Source: a virus. Taken from it: DNA of 64,000 nucleotides. Below the pieces are notes generated by a model. It saw only the letters and a list, made by a program, of their open reading frames with translations. It was not told where the DNA came from and did no database searches. The stretch covers positions 1-64,000 of IMG/VR virus record IMGVR_UViG_3300031873_000004, one strand, 5' to 3'. This document shows, one piece after another, positions 23,703 through 44,861 of this stretch (positions are counted from its first letter, which is position 1; every line of letters begins with the position of its first letter). Position numbers and translations under genes: made by a program.

Positions 23703-24374
23703 ATGCCAAGAGGCGACTACAAAAAGCCGAAATTACGCGTTAAAAAATCACCAGCATTGCAGCACGGGAAAAAGGTAGCGGGACGACCCACGTCATACGA
23801 ACCTGACCGCCACCCGCACGACGCGTATGTAGCCTGCTCACGTCTGGGCGCAGAAAACAAAGACCTCGCAGCCTTGTTTGAGGTGAGCAGTGAGTTGATC
23901 GAGCTCTGGTTAAGGAACTACCCTCAATTCAAAGCAGCTGTTCGTGTCGGTCGTGACGAATGGGATAGTATCAACATTGAGAAATCTCTCAAGCGCCGCG
24001 CAATGGGGTATGAGTACGAGGAAGTCAAGAGGAGCGCAAAGAACGGTCTGGAAACTACCACTAAGCACATGGCACCCGACGTCGGAGCCTGCATATTCTG
24101 GCTCATCAATCGACAGAAGGATCGCTGGCAGCAGATGCGCAATGTAGTCGTAACGGGTAAGACGGAGACAGACTTCAATGTCACTACAAATCATAAAATC
24201 AGCATAGCCAATCTCGACAGGAGTCAGCTTGAGCAGTTGCGAGACATTATCACCATCGCCAAGAACGTCCCCGCCCTCCCCGCACCAGTCCCCGGCAATG
24301 GATCTGAGCATATTGCCGGAACTGGAAACGGTGGAAACGGAACTGGCGACCAGGTATCTAAAGCCGTTCACTGA
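23703..24374 (+). CDS. Terminase small subunit
   Basis: GRPTSY, HTH, PDVGACIFWLINR; precedes TerL. Confidence 0.85.
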   Translation: MPRGDYKKPKLRVKKSPALQHGKKVAGRPTSYEPDRHPHDAYVACSRLGAENKDLAALFEVSSELIELWLRNYPQFKAAVRVGRDEWDSINIEKSLKRRAMGYEYEEVKRSAKNGLETTTKHMAPDVGACIFWLINRQKDRWQQMRNVVVTGKTETDFNVTTNHKISIANLDRSQLEQLRDIITIAKNVPALPAPVPGNGSEHIAGTGNGGNGTGDQVSKAVH

Positions 24375-25881
24375 GCAAGCGTGGCACGTGCTTGAGCCGG
24401 TGACAGACTTTACTCCCGGATGGCACCTCGATGCCGTTGCAGACCATTTGGAGTCTGTCGCGCTTGGCATAGGGAAGCCTGATGCGCCCGGTGCAATCCG
24501 TCGTTTAATAATCAACATCCCGCCCCGTCACAGCAAGAGCCTGCTCGTATCGGCAATGTTCCCGTCATGGTTATGGATAAATCACCCTGCATTCAGAAGC
24601 ATCACCGCGTCATACGGCCAAGACTTAGCGGTACGTGACGCAGTCAAGATGCGCAGGCTCATCACATCAAACTGGTATCAGAATCGCTGGTCAGACAGAT
24701 ACCAGCTCACCGGCGACCAAAACGCCAAGCAACGGTACGAGAATGACAAGACCGGCTACCGCATAGCAACCAGCGTGGACGGCATAGCGACAGGTGAAGG
24801 CGGAGACGGAATATTTATAGACGACCCGCACAACATCAAGGACAGTCTGAGCCCAGTCAAATTGCAATCAGTCATAGACTGGTTTGATATGGTAATCCAA
24901 ACCCGCCTAAACAATCCTAAGACAGGTTTCATCGTGCTGATCATGCAACGCTGCCACGAGAGGGACTTGACCGGCCATATATTAAGCAAAGAACTCGGCT
25001 ACACCCACTTATGCCTACCCGCCAGGTACGAGCGGAATCATCCGCAAGCATGGCCAGCCGACCCACGTTCGGTAGACGGCGAGTTGTTGTGGCCGAGTAT
25101 GTATGGCGAGACTGAATTACTAAGCCTCGAAAAAAGTATGGGGACTTATGCGGCAGCTGGTCAATTGCAACAGCGCCCGACACCTCGCGAAGGTGGGATG
25201 ATAAAGCGGGGATGGTTCACGATAGTGGAAGCCCTCCCAGCAGCACATCGTCGCACAGTCCGGTTCTGGGATAGGGCGAGCACGGAGAAGACGAGACTGA
25301 ACGATCCTGACTGGACAGCGGGTGCGAAGTTGAGCTGTCATGAGGGACTTATATACATTGAGCATATAGATGCGTTTCAGGCATCCAGCCATGAGAACGA
25401 GAAGCGCATCAAGCAGCGGGCTATCATGGACGGACCTGATGTGCAAGTGTTCATGGAAGAGGAGCCCGGCAGTAGCGGTAAGGATACCATCTCCCATTAC
25501 TCCCGTAACGTGCTTCAAGGGGTCGCTTTCAGGGGTAGACGCTCGACTGGACCGAAGGAATCCTATATAGACGTGATTGCTGCGCAGGCCGAGGCTGGCA
25601 ACGTGCGCTTGCTCAAGGGTGACTGGAACGAGGCATTTCTCAAGCAGTGCGAGCAGTGGCCGATGGGCGCGCACGATGACTATATCGACGCGGTGGCGAA
25701 GGCTTACGCTGAGATAAGTGCGAACTCAGTCAACATTCGCGACTTGAGCGATAACGTAGACATGGATGTGATAGACGAGAACACGGCACGAGCTGAGGAG
25801 TTGCGGGCGTATCAGAATATTAATCCCTCGATGATAGAAGCAACGCCGACAAGCATATTCAGAGATCCGGAGGCTTATTAA
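24298..25881 (+). CDS. Terminase large subunit
   Basis: NIPPRHSKS, FIDDP, IMQR.HE.DL, RFWD.A, HDD.IDA. Confidence 0.95.
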   Translation: MDLSILPELETVETELATRYLKPFTEQAWHVLEPVTDFTPGWHLDAVADHLESVALGIGKPDAPGAIRRLIINIPPRHSKSLLVSAMFPSWLWINHPAFRSITASYGQDLAVRDAVKMRRLITSNWYQNRWSDRYQLTGDQNAKQRYENDKTGYRIATSVDGIATGEGGDGIFIDDPHNIKDSLSPVKLQSVIDWFDMVIQTRLNNPKTGFIVLIMQRCHERDLTGHILSKELGYTHLCLPARYERNHPQAWPADPRSVDGELLWPSMYGETELLSLEKSMGTYAAAGQLQQRPTPREGGMIKRGWFTIVEALPAAHRRTVRFWDRASTEKTRLNDPDWTAGAKLSCHEGLIYIEHIDAFQASSHENEKRIKQRAIMDGPDVQVFMEEEPGSSGKDTISHYSRNVLQGVAFRGRRSTGPKESYIDVIAAQAEAGNVRLLKGDWNEAFLKQCEQWPMGAHDDYIDAVAKAYAEISANSVNIRDLSDNVDMDVIDENTARAEELRAYQNINPSMIEATPTSIFRDPEAY

Positions 25882-25882
25882 T

Positions 25883-27097
25883 ATGATATTCGAGACAGGT
25901 GACAGAGTAGTGCGAGTGGATGGCAAGGGCGGCATGATGCTCGTCATCGACGCGAGTGTGAAGTGGGTGCGAGTGCAGCATTGCGATGAGAATGTCACGC
26001 CGCTTCAGCGCAAGCAGGAGGTGCTCGTGCCGGAGTTGTTGGTGAAGCGGGACTATGTGCGGGATGATCGTGGGCGGTTTGGGAGTGGGTCGGGTGGTGG
26101 CGCAAAACCCAGTAATGAAGAGTCTGAGAATGCAGCCCGCAGTGGTAGTCCTTTCAAACCAGGTGACAAGGTGCGAGAACATAATCGGGTTGAGGTAGGA
26201 ACCGTGACGGGTCACAATCGTCATGGTCAAGTTCGGGTTGATGTTGGTGGTCGTGAAACTATCTATCATCATGCGAATTTAAGAACATCTGATTCCGTAA
26301 CCAAACCCTCCGCACCCATTGCCGCGATACAGGAGGCTCAACGCGGACGTACAGTTATTAATCCTCATTCTATCACAGCTGTTGAGGAATCACAACGAGC
26401 TGTTGGTAACGGAGACGCTCGATCCCACGCCAGAGCCGTTGCTGCGCATGATGCAGCTGCTATATACACATCGAATACTCAAGTGCGGGCAGGGGAGAAG
26501 CCTTTGTCTGAATTACATAGAGCAGCTGCGCAATTTCATCGAGATGCTATAGCGTCAGTAATCAAACCCTCCGCCGATAAGCTCCCAGCTCCAAAACATC
26601 CCAACGCGACAGTAATGTCGGTTCACGGGACGCATCATGTTGAGCGTTTTTCACGGGAAAACGCTCCGACACAGTATGATGTCATTGAAACGAGCACAGG
26701 TACGTTTCGAGGGAGTTATCCGACACATGAGGCTGCGGGAAGGGTTGCGGATGGTCACTCATCTCGTTCACTCCCAGCAGCCCACCAGGAAGCGCGTGAG
26801 CGCAACGTGGCGGCTGTCCGAGCAGGGGTGGGGCAGAGTGATGTACCGTCGACCGTTGATAGGTTGCCAGACGGGCGTTATGATTACCGTTCAGCTGGAC
26901 AGCATGGCTTGTTTGTTACAAGTTCTAAATATCCACCTAAAGTTGGTGGTGAGGTAGATTTCGCAGATAAGAATGGTAATAAAGTACAAGGGCGAGTTGA
27001 ACATATCGGAAATGGTAATATTCACATACGACAAGCTAATAACGATGGCTATTTCAAAGGACCGTTGCACGTTATGAGGATGATAGCTGAACGGTAA
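25883..27097 (+). CDS. Mosaic protein with RDDRGRFG motif, SH3-like and His/Ala helical segments (candidate virion cargo)
   Basis: Shares a block with 39324..39755. Confidence 0.7.
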   Translation: MIFETGDRVVRVDGKGGMMLVIDASVKWVRVQHCDENVTPLQRKQEVLVPELLVKRDYVRDDRGRFGSGSGGGAKPSNEESENAARSGSPFKPGDKVREHNRVEVGTVTGHNRHGQVRVDVGGRETIYHHANLRTSDSVTKPSAPIAAIQEAQRGRTVINPHSITAVEESQRAVGNGDARSHARAVAAHDAAAIYTSNTQVRAGEKPLSELHRAAAQFHRDAIASVIKPSADKLPAPKHPNATVMSVHGTHHVERFSRENAPTQYDVIETSTGTFRGSYPTHEAAGRVADGHSSRSLPAAHQEARERNVAAVRAGVGQSDVPSTVDRLPDGRYDYRSAGQHGLFVTSSKYPPKVGGEVDFADKNGNKVQGRVEHIGNGNIHIRQANNDGYFKGPLHVMRMIAER

Positions 27098-37575: not shown

Positions 37576-37911
37576 ATGATAGCACCATTCTTCATAGGTC
37601 AAGGCGACCGGCTCCCATACTATCGTGTCGTAGTGCGTGACGAGACTGGCGTGGTGACGTTGAGCGATGTCGCTGCAATTACATTTCGCATGAAGCTCAT
37701 GTCGACAGGCTCCGTGCTTGTGAGCGCCGCTGCCACAATCACGGATGCTTTGAATGGCGAAGCTGAGTACCGATGGGCAATCGCGGATACCATAACTGTC
37801 GGCGAGTATGCATCGTCGTTTGAGTTTCTGACCAACGCAGGACTTAAATATACCCTTCCGCGCAACACCATCGCCAAGATTATTGTCGAAGAGCGCGAAG
37901 CAACTGGATGA
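37576..37911 (+). CDS. BppU N-terminal-like adaptor protein
   Basis: IGQGD.LP...G.AEY.W...DT...GEY..FE...T.P. Confidence 0.7.
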   Translation: MIAPFFIGQGDRLPYYRVVVRDETGVVTLSDVAAITFRMKLMSTGSVLVSAAATITDALNGEAEYRWAIADTITVGEYASSFEFLTNAGLKYTLPRNTIAKIIVEEREATG

Positions 37912-37918
37912 GGTGACC

Positions 37919-39322
37919 ATGTTCGACGGAATAAGATCCAAAATGATGGAGACTATCGCCGACTGGTCAACCAAGGCGAGCAAAACCACGCAGGTGATGA
38001 TCGCGGGCGGTGACGGTGCTATATGGAAGAACAAACGGTATGACACGTTTGCGAAGGAAGCCTATCTCACGAACGTCGTCGCCTACCGCTGCATCGATGA
38101 GATTGCTCGCTCGGTTGAGTCTATCGAGTGGAAGATCAAGCAGTGGAAAAAGAACGGTGAGGTACAGGATGTAGATGACCACTTCATGCTTGACCTCATG
38201 TTTCAACCGAACCCTGAGCAGTCATGGGGTGAGCTTGTCTATCGTCACGTCGCGTTCGGTGTCATCTCCGGCAACGCGTACATGGAGCGCATAGGGCCGA
38301 CGAGTGGTCCCAATTCTGGCATTCCTCGGGAGCTGTGGAGCCATCGCCCGGACCGCATGACAGTGAAGGCGAACCCGAACACAGGTCTGCGCGAGCTGTA
38401 CAAGTATGTTGGCCCGAGTGGGCGCGAGGTTGAATGGAAGGTGAATCCGCTCACAGGCAAATCTGACATCTGGCATATGCGCTTCTTCAACCCGCTCAAC
38501 GATTGGTATGGTGCGGGTCCTGTGGAACCCACAAGCAGAGAGATTGACACGAGTAATGAGGCAATGGAATGGAACAAAAACCTCCTCCAGAACAGTGGCA
38601 GACCGGGGATGCTTTTCATCTTCGACGGGGCGATAGGCGATACCGAGTACAACAGATTAGAGAAAAAGCTGAAAGACAAGTACGGTGGGCCAAAGAACAC
38701 AGGCAAGCATCTAATCATCGAAGGCAAGAACGCCAAGGTCGAGCCGTATGGCTGGAGCCCGACGGAGATGGATTATATTGAGGGTAACCGGGAGCTGGCG
38801 CGTCGTATTGCGCTCGGCTTCGGTGTACCTCCAATGCTGCTTGGTATTCCCGGCGACAATACGTACAGCAATTACGCCGAGGCTAAGCTCGCATTCTGGG
38901 AGTCAACCGTGTTCTGGTACGCTAAGCGATTCGGCGGCGGGCTCAGCTCGTGGTTGTTCGACGTGAAGGATAGGATGCGGCTCATGCCTGACTATGACAG
39001 CCTGCCCGCGCTGGAGCCTCGGCGCAAGGAGCAGTTCGAGAAGGCTGAGAAGAGTGACTTCCTCACAATCAACGAGAAGCGCGAGATGTGCGGCTTCGAG
39101 AAGTATGGTGAGATCAAGCCGGATGAGGATGACGAGAGTGCGGATCCCGCAGATAAGATTTATCAGAACGCCAGCATGATGCCGCTGGGCGAGGAGCCGC
39201 CTGCGCCGGATATAGGTGGGTTTGATGGCGGTGACTTTGGAGCAGAGCCAGCACCGACTGATGAAGAGGATAGAGGTGAGGAAGTACCGCCCAAGAAGCC
39301 GAAGCCCGGCGAGGAGGAATAG
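37919..39322 (+). CDS. HK97-family portal protein
   Basis: VAYRCI, PNP, GNAY, FGVPP.LLG, TYSN, LTINEKR. Confidence 0.95.
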   Translation: MFDGIRSKMMETIADWSTKASKTTQVMIAGGDGAIWKNKRYDTFAKEAYLTNVVAYRCIDEIARSVESIEWKIKQWKKNGEVQDVDDHFMLDLMFQPNPEQSWGELVYRHVAFGVISGNAYMERIGPTSGPNSGIPRELWSHRPDRMTVKANPNTGLRELYKYVGPSGREVEWKVNPLTGKSDIWHMRFFNPLNDWYGAGPVEPTSREIDTSNEAMEWNKNLLQNSGRPGMLFIFDGAIGDTEYNRLEKKLKDKYGGPKNTGKHLIIEGKNAKVEPYGWSPTEMDYIEGNRELARRIALGFGVPPMLLGIPGDNTYSNYAEAKLAFWESTVFWYAKRFGGGLSSWLFDVKDRMRLMPDYDSLPALEPRRKEQFEKAEKSDFLTINEKREMCGFEKYGEIKPDEDDESADPADKIYQNASMMPLGEEPPAPDIGGFDGGDFGAEPAPTDEEDRGEEVPPKKPKPGEEE

Positions 39323-39323
39323 A

Positions 39324-39755
39324 GTGAGACAGAAATTAACAGCAGACGAGATGATGATGTCGGTGCAGATAAAGGGTGGGCCTGGTTCGGGTATCCGTGG
39401 CCATCAAACTGGTCGCGATCACACCGACGATTCTGTGCAACAACAGGATAGTTTAAGATTTGGTATTCCTTCGCCAAGAAATGCACAGGAGTTGCATGAA
39501 AGATTGCAGTCATCTGTGTCTAAAATCCAATCTTTACACAGAGGGAGAACTATCGTTCCCTCGGAATCAATCGACGCAGTTGAGGAGTCACAACGAGCTG
39601 TCTCTAATGGTGATAAACGTTCTCATTTACGTGCGCAATCTCTGAATCTGGCTGCGGCTCAGTCACAGAGGCTTACTAAAATTCCAGGATTAGCAGCAGC
39701 TCACATTCAACTTGCGAGTCACCATGCACAAGCGGCGAGGAGTGCTAACCCATGA
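39324..39755 (+). CDS. GGPGSG-motif His/Ala-rich protein (candidate head cargo)
   Basis: GTG start after GAGGAGG; KLTADE...QIKGGPGSG. Confidence 0.75.
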   Translation: MRQKLTADEMMMSVQIKGGPGSGIRGHQTGRDHTDDSVQQQDSLRFGIPSPRNAQELHERLQSSVSKIQSLHRGRTIVPSESIDAVEESQRAVSNGDKRSHLRAQSLNLAAAQSQRLTKIPGLAAAHIQLASHHAQAARSANP

Positions 39756-40210
39756 CACCCAAAGCAAGCGAGAAGCTCACAGACCTCCTGCAACGCGCCA
39801 TAGCTGGCGAAATGCAGGCGGCAATTCAGTACATGTGGCAGCACGTGGTCATGGTTGGACTCGAAGCCGAATCCGTCGGCCCCGCCATTCGCGGCATTGC
39901 AATGAGCGAGATGAAGCACGCCGAGCAGATTGCCGAGCGTCTCAACTACCTCGGCGGCATCCCGACCACGAAGCCAAATCCGATATATGTCGGCGGCACA
40001 ATCCCGGCGATGCTCGCTATTGATGTGACTGCCGAGGAGGATACGATCGCGCTGTACATGGATGTGATTGCGCAGGCGAAGGAAGACAACGACCACGAGA
40101 CAGCGCTCATGTTTCGCGAGATCATTCTTGAGGAGCAGGAGCACCACAATATACTAATCACGCTGCTCGGCAAGAAGGGTGAGGTTGGCGAGCCGAGGAT
40201 AGGAGACTGA
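39752..40210 (+). CDS. bfr: Bacterioferritin/ferritin-like protein
   Basis: E...QY, EMKHAE, AEE, EEQEH ferroxidase pattern. Confidence 0.88.
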   Translation: MTPKASEKLTDLLQRAIAGEMQAAIQYMWQHVVMVGLEAESVGPAIRGIAMSEMKHAEQIAERLNYLGGIPTTKPNPIYVGGTIPAMLAIDVTAEEDTIALYMDVIAQAKEDNDHETALMFREIILEEQEHHNILITLLGKKGEVGEPRIGD

Positions 40211-40213
40211 ACG

Positions 40214-40519
40214 ATGCGAATGAAATTGACAGCAGATGAAAAGTTGATGCCTACGCAAATCAAAGGTGGGCCAGGGAGTGGTCGTCGTGCTGAAAGTTCA
40301 TCTGAACATGCTGATAAATGGACAGTTGCTGCAAATAAGGTAAACACTCGACAAGCACATACAATTGCAGCTGCGGCCCATCGTCACGCTCAAAACGCTC
40401 ACGAAGAAGCCTATTATGCACATCCAGAAAGTGATAATAGGCATCATAGCGATGAAGCAGCTCGTCATCTGCGTGCATTTGATATGCATACTTCCGCTGC
40501 AAATTCGGCTAAGAGGTGA
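40214..40519 (+). CDS. GGPGSG-motif His/Ala-rich protein
   Basis: KLTADEKLMPTQIKGGPGSG; AHxxAAxxH repeats. Confidence 0.8.
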   Translation: MRMKLTADEKLMPTQIKGGPGSGRRAESSSEHADKWTVAANKVNTRQAHTIAAAAHRHAQNAHEEAYYAHPESDNRHHSDEAARHLRAFDMHTSAANSAKR

Positions 40520-40524
40520 TAACT

Positions 40525-40821
40525 ATGCCGACCGGAACAGCTGTTGACTCCTGCTATCAAAAATTGAAGCTCTCACACGGCGAAGCCTCCGCAGCTCGCA
40601 TCTGCCAGCACGCGACCGGGCAGGCGCTCGCCACAGGCAAGCCACCGAAGAAGGCAATGTCTTACAGCCAGCGGGTGAACGCGGGTACGCAATCGTTGAC
40701 GACCGACGAGCGCAAGATCCCGCCGCAACTGCTCACGCCGTCGGAGTGCAAGGGCTGCAAGCATCGCAATGTGGATGTATTTGAGAATACGCCGCCGACG
40801 ATAGGCGCAGGAGCCGCGTGA
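40525..40821 (+). CDS. Small Cys-containing protein
   Basis: MPTGT.V..CY...AARICQ..TG; internal LTTDERK. Confidence 0.6.
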   Translation: MPTGTAVDSCYQKLKLSHGEASAARICQHATGQALATGKPPKKAMSYSQRVNAGTQSLTTDERKIPPQLLTPSECKGCKHRNVDVFENTPPTIGAGAA

Positions 40822-41510
40822 TGGGATTGACTCCGTATGAAAAGGAAGAGAAGTGGATAGCGAAAGTGCAGCGTACCTGGTCACCTGAGCGCAAGGACTT
40901 CGATCCAGCGAAGCATCCTCGCGGTGAGGGTGGTCGGTTTGGGGAGGGTAGCGGGAGCGGAGACAGTGCAATAGTTTCTGAAAATAGAAAAGAAGAAAAT
41001 TATCGTGGAATAAAGGCTATATCTTTTGCACCGCAGGGAAGTGTCGATGTGGATTTAATAAAAGAAAATCGTGCAGTTGTTAATTCGGTACTTGATAAAC
41101 TTCCGAAAGGAGCTGCCGACGGATTAAACGCGCTTTATATAACAAGCGGTGACTTTACTCCACTTGGAACAGCCACGTACATCGCTCCAAGTAAACAGCG
41201 AGGGTATGTTTCAGATGAGATAATGACACAACAGGCGTGGTTGAATAAATCTCCTGTTGATAAAGAGGCTTCGTTACTTCATGAATTTGGTCATAGGATG
41301 CAACTTGTGAGTCATAAGGATATATTTAAGCGATTTAGCGCACAAGGTTTGGGTGTCCATTTTTCTTCTTTGACGGAACCACAGTATCAAAAGGCATACC
41401 CTAAAAAGCAACATGACGGAGAGTCTTTCGCCGAGTCGTTTGCAAGATATAAAATAGGAAAGGATATGCCGAATGAGTTAGTTACGTTTTGGAAAGGGAC
41501 GGGCTTATGA
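40818..41510 (+). CDS. HPR..GRFG-motif protein with zincin metallopeptidase domain
   Basis: KHPRGEGGRFG; HEFGH plus downstream ESFAESF. Confidence 0.8.
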   Translation: MMGLTPYEKEEKWIAKVQRTWSPERKDFDPAKHPRGEGGRFGEGSGSGDSAIVSENRKEENYRGIKAISFAPQGSVDVDLIKENRAVVNSVLDKLPKGAADGLNALYITSGDFTPLGTATYIAPSKQRGYVSDEIMTQQAWLNKSPVDKEASLLHEFGHRMQLVSHKDIFKRFSAQGLGVHFSSLTEPQYQKAYPKKQHDGESFAESFARYKIGKDMPNELVTFWKGTGL

Positions 41511-41614
41511 CTATTCCGATAAATATGGACGATCTGATTCAAGCAGCATTTAGCGGGGATGAGGAATCAAAAGAGCTTCTTATAAAAATAAAAGAGGTTG
41601 ATAGTAAACCGTGA
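41507..41614 (+). CDS. 35-aa acidic peptide (possible peptidase inhibitor/immunity)
   Basis: Hand-translated; ATGA and GTGA overlaps on both sides. Confidence 0.45.
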   Translation: MTIPINMDDLIQAAFSGDEESKELLIKIKEVDSKP

Positions 41615-42459
41615 TCTTCAACGTCAAACGCCCAGCCGCTCAAGCCCGCGCCCAAGTTGCCATCAACAGGCGACAGGACACGCTTGAGCGCAACTTCCGC
41701 AAGCGAGTACGCACCTTGCTTAACCAGCAGTATGCGGCAGCAAGCCGTGCGGTTGCGCGAGGCAATGATGTAGACGCGGTAATAGACTCCTTCACCGGAC
41801 AGCTTCGCCGGATATTCGCCGAGGAGTACACGCGAGCCGCCGAGACATTCTACGGCATTGTTGACCAGTCGCTGAAAAACGCGAAGGCTACAGAAAGCAT
41901 ACTTGAGTACAAGGGAATGAAGGACGAGTTCTGGGCGCGGTTCTTCGGATATGTGCGGAAGAAGGTGGCTCAGAAGGTTGCATGGGTGAACGATACTACT
42001 AAGGCAAACATCCGCGCCATCGTTGAGCTGGGTAAGGCTGACGGGAAGAGTGTTAATCTTATTGCTGAGGATATCTGGAGCTCAACAAATCAGGACATCA
42101 ATTTCAAGCGAGCAGTCAGGATTGCAAGGACGGAAGTCCATGCGGCGAGCAACACGGCTACGCAGGCGGCGGTCGAGTCCACGGGGCTGACGGGGCTGAC
42201 GCGAGAGTGGATAGCAATGGCAGACGAGCGCGTGCGTAGCAGCCACAGGAAGGCTCATGGGCAGGTGCGCGGGATGGATGAGGCGTTTGATGTGAACGGT
42301 GAAGAGTTGCAATTTCCTGGCGATCCAAAAGGAAGTGCTGGGAACGTGATTAACTGTAGATGCATCCTGATATATCATACTGGGCGCGGCGAGGACAGGA
42401 CAGCAGCACGTAGACGTGAGCAGGAACAACTCAGCAGGATGAGGAGCGCATACGAATGA
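41611..42459 (+). CDS. MuF/SPP1 gp7-like head morphogenesis protein
   Basis: RA.RIARTE, W....D.RVR.SH, FPGDP, INCRC. Confidence 0.92.
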   Translation: MIFNVKRPAAQARAQVAINRRQDTLERNFRKRVRTLLNQQYAAASRAVARGNDVDAVIDSFTGQLRRIFAEEYTRAAETFYGIVDQSLKNAKATESILEYKGMKDEFWARFFGYVRKKVAQKVAWVNDTTKANIRAIVELGKADGKSVNLIAEDIWSSTNQDINFKRAVRIARTEVHAASNTATQAAVESTGLTGLTREWIAMADERVRSSHRKAHGQVRGMDEAFDVNGEELQFPGDPKGSAGNVINCRCILIYHTGRGEDRTAARRREQEQLSRMRSAYE

Positions 42460-42644
42460 GAATTTACAATCATCTATTCACCGGAACATTCAAGCGCGAG
42501 CCGAAGCCTGTCGCGGGTGCGGTGGAGTATAAGACCATTAAATCCCGCACAGTAAAGTCTCGCAAAGTGAAGAATAAACTATATTAAATCTATTAAATAG
42601 CGCGGTACTTCCGCGAAACGACTATATAATGACAACAATGTAAT

Positions 42645-43394
42645 ATGGAGGCGAAGATGCAGACTAAGTACGCCACGAAACGGGACGAAGTTCTCGACTT
42701 TTCAATAGAGATCAAGAAGGAAGACGTCAACCATAACGGCTTCTTCAAGGGCTACGCCAGCACGTTTGGCGGCGACCCCGACCAAGGTGGAGATGTCATA
42801 GCCAAGGGCTGCTTTACCGACACCCTCAAGATGAACGGGCGCGGCGGCAATGGCATCGCGATGCTCTGGTCACACGATCCGCGCTGTCCTATCGGTGCAT
42901 GGAACCTCGTGCGCGAAGACGAAAAAGGATTGTACGTTGAAGGAATGATCGAGCCCACCGCCTGCCCGGACGGAGTGCCAGTTCATAAGGTTATGAAGAT
43001 GGGTGGCATCAAAGGGCTCTCCATCGGCTACAACACGGTGGACAGCGGTGACATCATGGTGGGCAAGACGAAGGCCCGTGAGCTGAAGAAGGTCAATCTT
43101 TGGGAAATATCGCTGGTGACGTTTCCGATGAACACTCGGTCAACCGTCACTGGTGTCAAGCACATACTTGAAGCGACGACAGAGCGTGAGTTGGAGGATG
43201 CCTTGCGAGAGGCAAGCATTCCCCGGTCGGTAGCCAAGGTCATTGTGAAGGTGGCGAAGGAAGGCTTGCGGGATGCAGCCAGACCGAGACACTCAACCAA
43301 TGGCGAACAGGCGCTCATTCTGAAGGCGTTGAGAGATGTGAATGCGGGTCTCACGTTATCAGCTGTACAAAATTCAATTCGGGAAAACTTTTAA
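42645..43394 (+). CDS. HK97-type prohead protease
   Basis: GYASTF, MLWSHD, GLSIGY, EISLVTFP.N. Confidence 0.95.
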   Translation: MEAKMQTKYATKRDEVLDFSIEIKKEDVNHNGFFKGYASTFGGDPDQGGDVIAKGCFTDTLKMNGRGGNGIAMLWSHDPRCPIGAWNLVREDEKGLYVEGMIEPTACPDGVPVHKVMKMGGIKGLSIGYNTVDSGDIMVGKTKARELKKVNLWEISLVTFPMNTRSTVTGVKHILEATTERELEDALREASIPRSVAKVIVKVAKEGLRDAARPRHSTNGEQALILKALRDVNAGLTLSAVQNSIRENF

Positions 43395-43406: not shown

Positions 43407-44861
43407 ATGAAATCGAACCAGATCGCAAGGCCGTTCGGCAAACCTACCATGGAGTACAAGGATGCCAATGGCGACAACAACGGTAACAGCGGCAATGAGC
43501 CGGAAGTAAACGCAGCAGTCCTCGCAGAGATCAAAACCCTCGGCACCAATGTCAAGGGCCAGATTGAAGAGTTGCAGCGGAACTACAAGAAGCTCCAGAG
43601 CGCAGTGGATCAGGGCAGCCCGGACGCAGTGAAGCGTGCAGAGATCAGCAAGCTCTCCGAGGACATTATCACTCGGCAGAACGCGCTCGACATGACCTTC
43701 ACCAAGCGTGCCGATGACATGGAAGTCGCGATGCAGCGGCTTATGTCGGCAGGCGGATCACACCTTGAAGGCAAGGCGGGTCAGGAGTTCGCGGATGCAA
43801 AGATGTTCCTCACGCACCAGCTCATCAGCCAGAAGCGGCTCAACAAGACCGGCATCGACGATTCAATGGTTGACGTTGAAGCCCTGCGCAACTACAGCAA
43901 GGCATTCAGCACATACCTCCGCATCGACGAGAAGCAGCTCCCCATCCACTCCCCTGAGTGCGTGAAGTACCTCACGACCGGCTCTGATCCGGACGGTGGT
44001 ATCCTCGTGACCCCGGTGACGTCCTCGCGCATCGTTGAGCGCATCTGGGAAATGGACCCCATCCGTCAGCTGGCCTCTGTTGAGACCATAGGTACGGACG
44101 CGCTGGAAATGCTCGAAGACCTCGGACAGTTCGGCGTTGACTGGGAAGGTGAGACTGTTGCAACCACGACAGTCGCAACCTCTCAGTGGAGCAAGAAGCG
44201 CATCCCGGTGCATGTTCAGTCCTGCCGTCCCTACGCCACTCAGTCGCAGGTTGACGATGCATCTATCAACATCGAAGAGTGGATCGCCAAGAAGGTGGCC
44301 GACAAGTTCGGGCGGGCAGAAGCAAACGCATTCGTCGCAGGCAACGGCATCAACAAGCCTCGCGGTTTCCTGACCTATACGGATTACACGGGCACCAAGG
44401 GAGACGGCGGCGTCACCATGGGCCAGATCGAGCAGCGCAACTCCGGTGCAGCCGCAGCGGTCACGACCGACGGTCTCATCACCCTGAAATACTCGCTAGT
44501 TGAAGACCTCCTTCAGCGCGGCACCTGGCTTGTCAACAGGCTCACGGTTGCTGAACTGATGAAGCTCAAAGACGGCGACGGCCAGTACATCTGGAGACCC
44601 GGCATCACGGAAGGTCAGCCTTCCACCCTGCTTGGTCTTCCGCTCCGCATGAGCACCTCAATGCCGACGATCACCGCAGGTGCGCTCTCCGTGGCCCTCG
44701 GCGACTGGCGCGAGGCTTACACCATCGTTGACCGGCAGGGCATCACCGTGCAGCGCGACCCTTACACCAAGAAGCCCTTTGTTGAGTTCTACACTCGGCG
44801 CAGGGTTGGCGGCGATGTGGTCAACTTCCAGGCCATCAAGCTGATGGTGATTTCCGCTTAG
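43407..44861 (+). CDS. HK97-fold major capsid protein with delta domain
   Basis: DPDGG.LV, FV.G.G..KPRG, DGQYIW, RRVGG. Confidence 0.96.
   Translation: MKSNQIARPFGKPTMEYKDANGDNNGNSGNEPEVNAAVLAEIKTLGTNVKGQIEELQRNYKKLQSAVDQGSPDAVKRAEISKLSEDIITRQNALDMTFTKRADDMEVAMQRLMSAGGSHLEGKAGQEFADAKMFLTHQLISQKRLNKTGIDDSMVDVEALRNYSKAFSTYLRIDEKQLPIHSPECVKYLTTGSDPDGGILVTPVTSSRIVERIWEMDPIRQLASVETIGTDALEMLEDLGQFGVDWEGETVATTTVATSQWSKKRIPVHVQSCRPYATQSQVDDASINIEEWIAKKVADKFGRAEANAFVAGNGINKPRGFLTYTDYTGTKGDGGVTMGQIEQRNSGAAAAVTTDGLITLKYSLVEDLLQRGTWLVNRLTVAELMKLKDGDGQYIWRPGITEGQPSTLLGLPLRMSTSMPTITAGALSVALGDWREAYTIVDRQGITVQRDPYTKKPFVEFYTRRRVGGDVVNFQAIKLMVISA

Follow-up and report, generated by a model that had tools for sequence, protein, structure and literature searches.

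Between the portal and MuF genes of an uncultured phage (IMG/VR virus record IMGVR_UViG_3300031873_000004), six small open reading frames (ORFs) form a cassette in which three of them, here called P2, P4, and P6, probably encode precursors of proteins carried in the phage head. The window that we analyzed comprises the first 64 kb of this 79,431-bp record, the completeness of which was judged to be 97%. Two other ORFs of the window, a probable remnant at 42456-42587 and ORF404, are covered by the same reading and appear to follow one plan, namely, a short amphipathic leader ending in Lys, a Gly-rich tag (motif A or motif B), and a variable payload. We favor, with moderate confidence, the view that a propeptide resembling the capsid-targeting sequence (CTS) of phage T4, a site for the head protease, and a conserved tag precede swappable payloads, so that the cassette would be an unbundled polyvalent protein lying between portal and MuF, the two being fused in related families. 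Comparison across loci revealed peptide-level selection, tags linked to head genes, swapping exactly at the tag, and a residue before the tag that tracks the protease. As for the mechanism, the leader would bring the precursors into the procapsid in the manner of a T4 capsid-targeting sequence, the S78 prohead protease would cut after Lys (QIK/GG and ERK/DF), and the payloads would remain in the head with the tag as their new N terminus and exit with the DNA at infection.

Injected proteins carried in the head are the first weapons directed at the host (anti-restriction, ADP-ribosylation, nucleotide and cell-wall enzymes), and they are known for only a handful of model phages. If the favored view is true, metagenomic phage genomes could be turned into catalogues of candidate injected effectors. 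The residue before the tag would read out the specificity of the head protease, and cut sites would become predictable for protease families that lack biochemistry, such as DUF2213. Foreign proteins could also be loaded into HK97-type capsids by means of a portable handle, as the targeting sequences of T4 and P1 already allow for those phages. Within the window, this view explains the opaque run of orphan genes between portal and MuF.

Leaders, tags, and payloads of the cargo candidates

The five ORFs and their parts are located as follows.

39324..39755, + strand: P2, cargo candidate of 143 aa; leader aa 1-17 (39324-39374), ending in QIK
39375-39404, + strand: degenerate motif B of P2, GGPGSGIRGH
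40214..40519, + strand: P4, cargo candidate of 101 aa; leader aa 1-17 (40214-40264), ending in QIK
40265-40282, + strand: half motif B of P4, GGPGSG, followed by a His/Ala-rich helical-bundle payload
40821..41510, + strand: P6, cargo candidate; leader aa 1-25 (40821-40895), ending in ERK
40896-40961, + strand: motif A of P6 (aa 26-47)
41280-41294, + strand: zincin motif HEFGH of P6, with the Glu ligand region at 41418-41438
42456..42587, + strand: 43-aa ORF coupled to the MuF stop codon; leader ending in AVEYK (42519-42533)
25883..27097, + strand: ORF404, directly after TerL; a small N-terminal domain and several small modules
26045-26101, + strand: degenerate motif A junction of ORF404, KRDYVRDDRGRFGSGSGGG (RDDRGRFGSGSGGG)
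26318-26428, + strand: module of ORF404, 62% identical to the P2 payload

P2 and P4 have a common start, MRxKLTADExxMxxQIKGGPGSG, and diverge after it (BLASTP E value of 5e-13), with all of the identity within the first 23 residues, 17 of which are identical. A model reading of the bare sequence (the original prediction) had noticed this shared N terminus in the ORFs at 39324 and 40214, and the core observation is real and far beyond chance. At the nucleotide level, the identity between the two leaders was 70%, and synonymous differences were found at 10 of the 16 degenerate codons among the 17 identical residues. Given that the peptide was kept despite this synonymous divergence, the leader is under peptide-level selection; judging from these sequences, it is an old duplication held by such selection and not a recent repeat. 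The leader of P2 is retained in P0058, a relative with 84% identity. Read-through from the portal gene into P2 was rejected, since P2 lies in the +1 frame and has its own strong ribosome-binding site (GAGGAGG) 6 nt upstream.

The payload of P2 is helical, with His and Ala, and has a module (39516-39626) in common with ORF404 (37 residues, 62% identity). Since ORF404 combines this P2-like module with a degenerate motif A, tagged cargo candidates also occur outside the portal-MuF gap. For P4, a set of 5.8 billion proteins yielded no relative of similar length, and neither P4 nor ORF404 received a functional lead from the ESM Atlas.

P6, read from the ATG at 40821, starts with MGLTPYEK...SPERK-DFDPAKHPRGEGGRFGEGSGSG and carries HEFGH and a downstream Glu in its payload, which bears out the GLTPYEK..ERK leader and zincin payload first proposed for an ORF opening at 40818. 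Among 29 relatives, E155, H158, and E201 were invariant or nearly so (at least 90% for E155). The AlphaFold2 (AF2) model was a zincin with a predicted local distance difference test (pLDDT) score of 87, and the top Foldseek matches were all lethal factor or Pro-Pro endopeptidases (PPEP), with probabilities of up to 0.99, a weak E value (6e-3), and template modeling scores of 0.35 to 0.42. P6 thus has both HExxH and a downstream Glu ligand on a zincin fold, and we regard the payload, on the basis of this model, as a putative zincin of the lethal-factor/Pro-Pro-endopeptidase type, membership in M34 not being established at the family level. A lethal-factor-like fold is also reported for the metallopeptidase domain of polyvalent proteins (PMC5512222).

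The leader of P6 is 77 to 80% identical in P0012 and P0013, whose payloads are unrelated to that of P6, and the similarity stops right after GRFG. The proposal of a portable leader and tag with interchangeable payloads is supported by these two proteins. The P6-type zincin is in turn found behind varied N termini, with 41 to 59% identity to domains fused with ART-PolyVal (P0002), InPase (P0003), MuF (P0008 and P0011), and portal (P0015). In another zincin relative, P0005, a different tag, KG..SGNFDHAGRPGEQGGSG, stands at the same place, and this is the second tag (motif B). The GGPGSGIRGH of P2 is a degenerate form of the P0005-type tag, while the GGPGSG of P4 is its first half. When modeled alone with AF2, the tag region was disordered (pLDDT of about 50) and preceded by a short leader helix.

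The G+C content of P6 drops directly after the tag, to 0.40 in the payload versus 0.58 in its own leader and tag. Payloads had been described as AT-rich, and this holds for P6 as well as for P2 (0.47) and P4 (0.46) but not for the two remaining genes that separate them, a bacterioferritin-like gene (0.57) and P5 (0.61).

In the 43-aa ORF at 42456-42587, AVEYK is followed by a 17-aa basic tail instead of a payload. P0056 (193 aa) has the same N terminus, followed by EYK-RFDPAKHPRGEGGRFG and a payload, and the similarity again stops after GRFG. Since the protein is full-length in P0056 and only the leader and the 17-aa tail are found here, this ORF looks like a leader-only remnant, that is, an emptied cargo slot, as far as the sequence goes. 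Close relatives were not found among 50,697 phage records, either by megablast of the head region or by tblastn of P2 and P6, and a leader-based locus search and the exact FDPAKHPRGEGGRFG pattern gave no match in IMG/VR.

The junction tags in other loci

Motif A (DFDPAKHPRGEGGRFG) reads roughly [K]-[DE]-[FW]-[DN]-E-x-x-HPR-[DG]-x-x-G-[RK]-F-G-x-G-x-G, and the consensus of motif B is [K/D/L/N]-GG-P-GSGNFGHxGRPG-[EKQ]-V-GGSG, with E also seen before GG. An exhaustive phmmer search with P6 as the query showed motif A repeated three to six times per protein in proteins of 500 to 2,090 aa with MuF or ADP-ribosyltransferase (ART) domains. The strict pattern of motif A was present at 37 IMG/VR loci (fewer than one expected by chance, by our own arithmetic) and that of motif B at at least 114, with up to nine copies in one locus. 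The tags, in one to nine copies per locus, were situated in many unrelated phages at the boundaries of polyvalent modules fused to portal, MuF, or protease, and both were also found near the N terminus of stand-alone genes in head modules. The domains, which were the same in ORFs tagged with motif A and with motif B, comprised portal, MuF, ART, Top1B, NUDIX, zeta toxin, InPase, LPD3, RelA/SpoT, and GNAT, together with the lethal-factor-like zincin and the head proteases S78_2 and DUF2213, the same set as in polyvalent proteins of phages (Iyer et al. 2017, PMC5512222).

Both arrangements, fused and separate, can be seen in individual loci. For instance, in L055 (from a metagenome) a 767-aa portal is joined via motif A to a further C-terminal domain, while in L056 MuF is followed by two solo genes with one common leader, motif A, and different payloads. 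In L167, three solo genes have one common leader. Among 58 complete solo tagged ORFs of up to 350 aa, the median distance between the first Met and the start of the tag was 30 aa, and the neighbors within two genes were portal, MuF-type head morphogenesis, head maturation protease, TerL, and capsid genes; the motif is thus concentrated near head genes, as the original prediction had required. In contrast, the stand-alone addressing system that it had pictured gave way to a split form of portal- and MuF-fused polyvalent proteins with the same junction tags. The portal-MuF fusion family phrog_2662 was matched by both the portal and the MuF protein of the window, which indicates that the small ORFs occupy the fusion joint of the relatives. 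MuF is the sole domain of its ORF here, with no toxin fused at the C terminus, and the payloads are separate ORFs. P2, P4, and P6 each carry a single payload, so they are not the multidomain polypeptides by which polyvalent proteins are recognized. By analogy, the cassette would best be filed as a split variant of polyvalent/MuF cargo systems that works like the T4 CTS.

The presence of MuF is no guarantee of a tag, since neither motif was found at 52 loci that carry distant relatives of MuF. Motif B was also present in genomes or metagenome-assembled genomes (MAGs) of Clostridia, Actinobacteria, several Proteobacteria, Acidobacteria, Planctomycetota, Saccharibacteria, and a Methanomassiliicoccales archaeon, presumably in prophages, and its occurrence in the Methanomassiliicoccales MAG and in Saccharibacteria MAGs (L253, L232, and L258) indicates that the tag spans bacterial and archaeal viruses. 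Tagged prophages presumably reside in candidate hosts such as Arthrobacter sp. MPF02, Pseudarthrobacter albicanus, Amycolatopsis sp., Haloechinothrix aidingensis, and Inquilinus sp. When tag-rich proteins were compared with cultured phages by tblastn, only enzyme domains were matched and no well-studied cultured tag carrier could be named, presumably due to masking of the Gly-rich tags. No model in Pfam or NCBIfam covers either tag, and the strings KHPRD, GHAGRPG, and GGPGSGN were not found in a phage context in the literature searched. The two junction tags with a protease-matched site are apparently the undescribed part of these systems.

Pre-tag residue, head protease, and alternative explanations

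The residues before motif B fell into the classes K, D, L/A (usually R-x-L/A), N, E, Q/H, and R. This residue was identical in 86% of within-locus pairs versus 21% of shuffled ones, and none of 2,000 shuffles reached 86%. Tag copies within one phage were 81 to 97% identical as peptide and 64 to 76% as DNA, and 56 to 70% of the codons for identical residues differed. Given this saturation of synonymous sites, gene conversion does not explain the uniformity within phages and was rejected as its cause.

We surveyed the head proteases in 47 motif B records, which were picked by residue class with the protease unknown at selection. Peptidase_S78 or S78_2 was found only in K/R records (5 of 5), a class making up 13 of the 47 (P of about 8e-4 by our own hypergeometric arithmetic). 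Full-length DUF2213, which is labeled a head maturation protease in PHROGs and has an acidic scaffold-like tail, was present in exactly the 11 D-class records, with divergent DUF2213-like matches in L/A and H/Q records. The T4-type Peptidase_S77 appeared in L167 only, a record with a Gp23-type capsid protein and four tags preceded by LFE or LLE (sites LFE/GG and LLE/GG). An independent repeat with motif A loci paired S78 with Lys (5/5) and DUF2213 with Asp (7/7), giving for both motifs K/R with S78-type proteases in 10/10, D with DUF2213 in 18/18, and L-x-E with S77 in 1/1. Each tag type is thus seen with S78 as well as with DUF2213, and the preceding residue goes with the protease and not with the tag.

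The residues also match the type enzymes, i.e., K for HK97, whose protease cuts the capsid protein at K103/S104 (PMC10275583), and L-x-E for T4 gp21, which cuts after L/I-x-E and removes the 10-residue capsid-targeting sequences of internal proteins (PMC9026906). The phage of the window combines an S78 protease with Lys sites (QIK/GG in P2 and P4, ERK/DF in P6, and EYK in the remnant ORF), and the predicted cleavage after Lys is supported in that it fits this tracking of residue and protease. A general [E/Q]-x-K rule, which the original prediction had extended to MEYK, LEYK, and IEIK in head proteins, was rejected, since the pattern is at chance frequency in the ORFs of the genome (119 seen versus 118 expected) and those three instances are uninformative as a class. 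EYK was seen four times in the ORFs of the genome versus 2.2 expected, three of them being in MuF, the 43-aa ORF at 42456-42587, and the capsid protein.

Several points weigh against the view of a cleaved and packaged cargo set. The bacterioferritin-like gene and P5, which belong to the same cassette, carry no tag at all. None of the protease families searched for was found in 7 of the 11 K-class and all 4 N-class records, and shared ancestry of phage lineages could be a partial source of the association between residue and protease, the records having been stratified by the pre-tag residue. The capsid protein of the window has Lys residues (NYSK at 43890-43901 and ECVK at 43956-43967) at or near the position aligned with K103/S104 of HK97, but aligning capsid proteins with HK97 gp5 gave no objective placement of the maturation site, and in an N-class phage, MAFFT places Lys, not Asn, opposite K103. 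The cut position in motif A is uncertain, with Lys one to three residues before the aromatic residue. Finally, conservation over 20 residues exceeds the need of a cut site, which leaves part of the mechanism missing; being conserved over this length across protease families, the tag must do more than offer a scissile bond.

Three observations on the proteases and tagged proteins of individual records can be added. The DUF2213 proteins of L212, L213, and L214 have IKD-S, IKD-S, and NID-S, respectively, directly after the DUF2213 domain, possibly marking self-cleavage at Asp, as proposed for their cargo junctions. In the N-class record L209 (80 kb, 100% complete), no known head protease family was found, and the capsid protein forms the C-terminal end of a longer ORF (713 aa, 274-2412) that includes a long acidic spacer. 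A 1,274-aa tagged protein of L167 (7816-11637) has an intein with a DUF559/Vsr-type endonuclease, HEAT-like repeats, and a DRAT-type ADP-ribosyltransferase.

A broader claim, to which we give only tentative credence, is that motifs A and B act as cargo tags universally among tailed phages, much as secretion signals do. Every module following a protease site and tag would then be freed in the capsid by the head protease and delivered with the DNA, and the tag would serve a common step after the cut, such as exit through portal and tail or tethering to DNA. Sequence alone would then suffice to catalogue injected effectors in viruses of bacteria and archaea, and the pre-tag residue would reveal the specificity of each prohead protease, including Asp for the uncharacterized DUF2213 family.

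Among the alternatives, the one that survives best also has the cassette as capsid cargo but takes the tags for uncleaved binding or address peptides, directed to portal, MuF, the capsid interior, or DNA, with the pre-tag residue simply co-inherited with the protease family. Conservation of the tag across protease families would suit a partner common to all of them, MuF was present in 34 of the 47 motif B records, and the disorder predicted for the isolated tag is often found in short docking peptides. However, modules fused to portal or MuF need no address, yet the tag is found at every module boundary; the residues before it match the known specificities of HK97 and T4 gp21, and within each protease family, motif A and motif B show the same association. 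We therefore consider this alternative unlikely.

It is decidedly unlikely that the tags are mere flexible linkers or recombination joints for the shuffling of modules, with no role in processing or targeting. Their richness in Gly, their predicted disorder, and their location exactly at the points of payload exchange would all be expected of such joints. But the copies within a phage, similar as peptide, are so different as DNA that they offer little homology for recombination and point to selection on the peptide. Across phyla, moreover, the H, R, P, and F/W positions never vary, a degree of constraint that a simple linker would not call for.

The small genes could also be ordinary accessory genes or assembly helpers that are not packaged, with a leader for translation, folding, or membrane targeting. 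The AT-rich payloads do look horizontally acquired, and two genes in the same block have no tag. Elsewhere, in contrast, payloads and tags of these kinds form fusions with portal, MuF, and head protease, and solo tagged genes are located in head modules, which makes this explanation very improbable.

Cutting of the junctions by the P6-type zincin is suggested by Iyer et al., who propose such processing for the zincin domains of polyvalent proteins (PMC5512222), and the confident P6 model, similar to lethal factor and Pro-Pro endopeptidases, also speaks for it. Its profile, however, matched only 3 of the 47 motif B records and 1 of the 13 near-complete ones, so the zincin is a payload and was rejected as a general junction enzyme. 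Zincin domains of the anthrax-lethal-factor type (ATLF) were found in only 1 to 2 of 42 to 48 tagged ORFs scanned, and the pre-tag residue tracks the family of the head protease and not the presence of zincin. On these grounds, we hold this to be highly improbable.

A last reading, that of a double-glycine export leader processed after GG by an ABC transporter with a C39 peptidase, was rejected as hardly conceivable. The likeness of the KLTxxEM...IKGG leader to class II bacteriocin and ComC leaders is superficial (the IKGG end and the L-T-x-x-E-M stretch), and its hydrophobic positions are wrongly spaced. In addition, GG tags lie inside proteins, in up to nine copies per locus, Pro follows GG in 60% of tags, the genes are in a head-gene context, and Peptidase_C39 was not found in the phage.

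Known systems and the remaining genes of the head region

The favored view, of cargo precursors with a cleavable leader, has its closest parallel in the internal proteins IPI-III and Alt of T4 and their CTS (PMC9026906). In both cases, a short N-terminal leader is common to otherwise unrelated proteins of the head module (here P2/P4 and P6/P0012/P0013), and the payloads are variable and conflict-related, Alt of T4 being an ART. The T4 leader ends at the cut site of the head protease, and the leaders here end in Lys, at a site predicted for S78. One tagged phage, L167, has a T4-type S77 protease and L-x-E before every tag. Unlike in T4, however, the phage of the window has an HK97-type S78 protease and Lys sites, and no sequence similarity to the T4 CTS was seen. 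The cut site is also followed by an extra conserved tag of 20 residues that T4 does not have, and the same junction is found inside multidomain proteins fused to portal or MuF.

With the polyvalent proteins (Iyer, Burroughs, Anand, de Souza, and Aravind 2017, PMC5512222), the cassette shares its location among late virion genes, the predicted packaging and injection, and a repertoire of lethal-factor-like zincin, ART-PolyVal, InPase, LPD3, NUDIX, zeta toxin, and MuF/portal fusions. The difference is that each payload is a separate small gene and not part of a giant polypeptide. The two junction tags and the protease-matched residue are not described in the passages of that paper that were searched, and processing is assigned there to zincin domains. 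The MuF polymorphic toxins of temperate phages (Jamet et al. 2017, PMC5576092) likewise have variable effector ends associated with MuF and swappable C-terminal modules, and neither a junction motif nor cleavage is mentioned in the passages searched; in the window, MuF is encoded separately and has no fused toxin, and no immunity gene was identified, P7 (see below) being only a candidate. An N-terminal signal is also found in DarB of P1, where it is sufficient for capsid loading (PMC9024508), and in the giant phages SPN3US and phiKZ the prohead protease removes propeptides of proteins that are later ejected (PMC10052503). These belong to other phage groups with other sequences, and no conserved Gly-rich tag has been reported for them.

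The surrounding and interspersed genes of the window are the following.

24229-25881: TerL, start of the late region
37883..39322, + strand: portal protein, 479 aa; Pfam Phage_portal (1.3e-61), also phrog_2662
39752..40210, + strand: bacterioferritin-like protein; Pfam Ferritin (4.8e-26), best PDB sequence match 9qq4 (E value of 1.5e-24)
40525..40821, + strand: P5, 98 aa, neither tag
41489..41614, + strand: P7, 41-aa acidic ORF; phrog_7267 (E value of 1.3e-3)
41611..42459, + strand: MuF-like head morphogenesis protein, 282 aa; Pfam Phage_Mu_F (7.3e-15), phrog_2468 (3.3e-49)
42645..43394, + strand: HK97-type prohead serine protease; Pfam Peptidase_S78 (1.3e-28), phrog_80 (3.7e-50)
43407..44861, + strand: HK97-fold major capsid protein with a long N-terminal scaffold region; Pfam Phage_capsid (1.1e-72)

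The cassette begins 2 nt past the portal stop codon and lies among late virion genes, upstream of protease and capsid, while about 20 appendage genes separate ORF404 from the portal. The start of the bacterioferritin-like gene overlaps the stop codon of P2, and its product has neither leader nor tag. It is found inside the head operon, between the leader-bearing P2 and P4, and relatives were present in only 4 of 50,697 phage records. Its C-terminal tail, GKKGEVGEP, is loosely like the GRPGEVGGS half of motif B.

P5 had been noted to contain SLTTDERKIP..ECK; the stretch is there (SLTTDERKIPPQLLTPSECK) and its LTxDER...ECK part is conserved in relatives, but no tag follows it. The N-terminal 45 aa of P5 belong to a family of 54- to 59-aa proteins labeled PF23855 in the protein database, and its C-terminal ECKGCKHRNVDVFENTPPTIGAGA tail is conserved in close relatives. 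P7 begins before the zincin gene ends, and its G+C content (0.39) is similarly low to that of the zincin payload; as a candidate only, P7 could be an inhibitor or a partner of the zincin.

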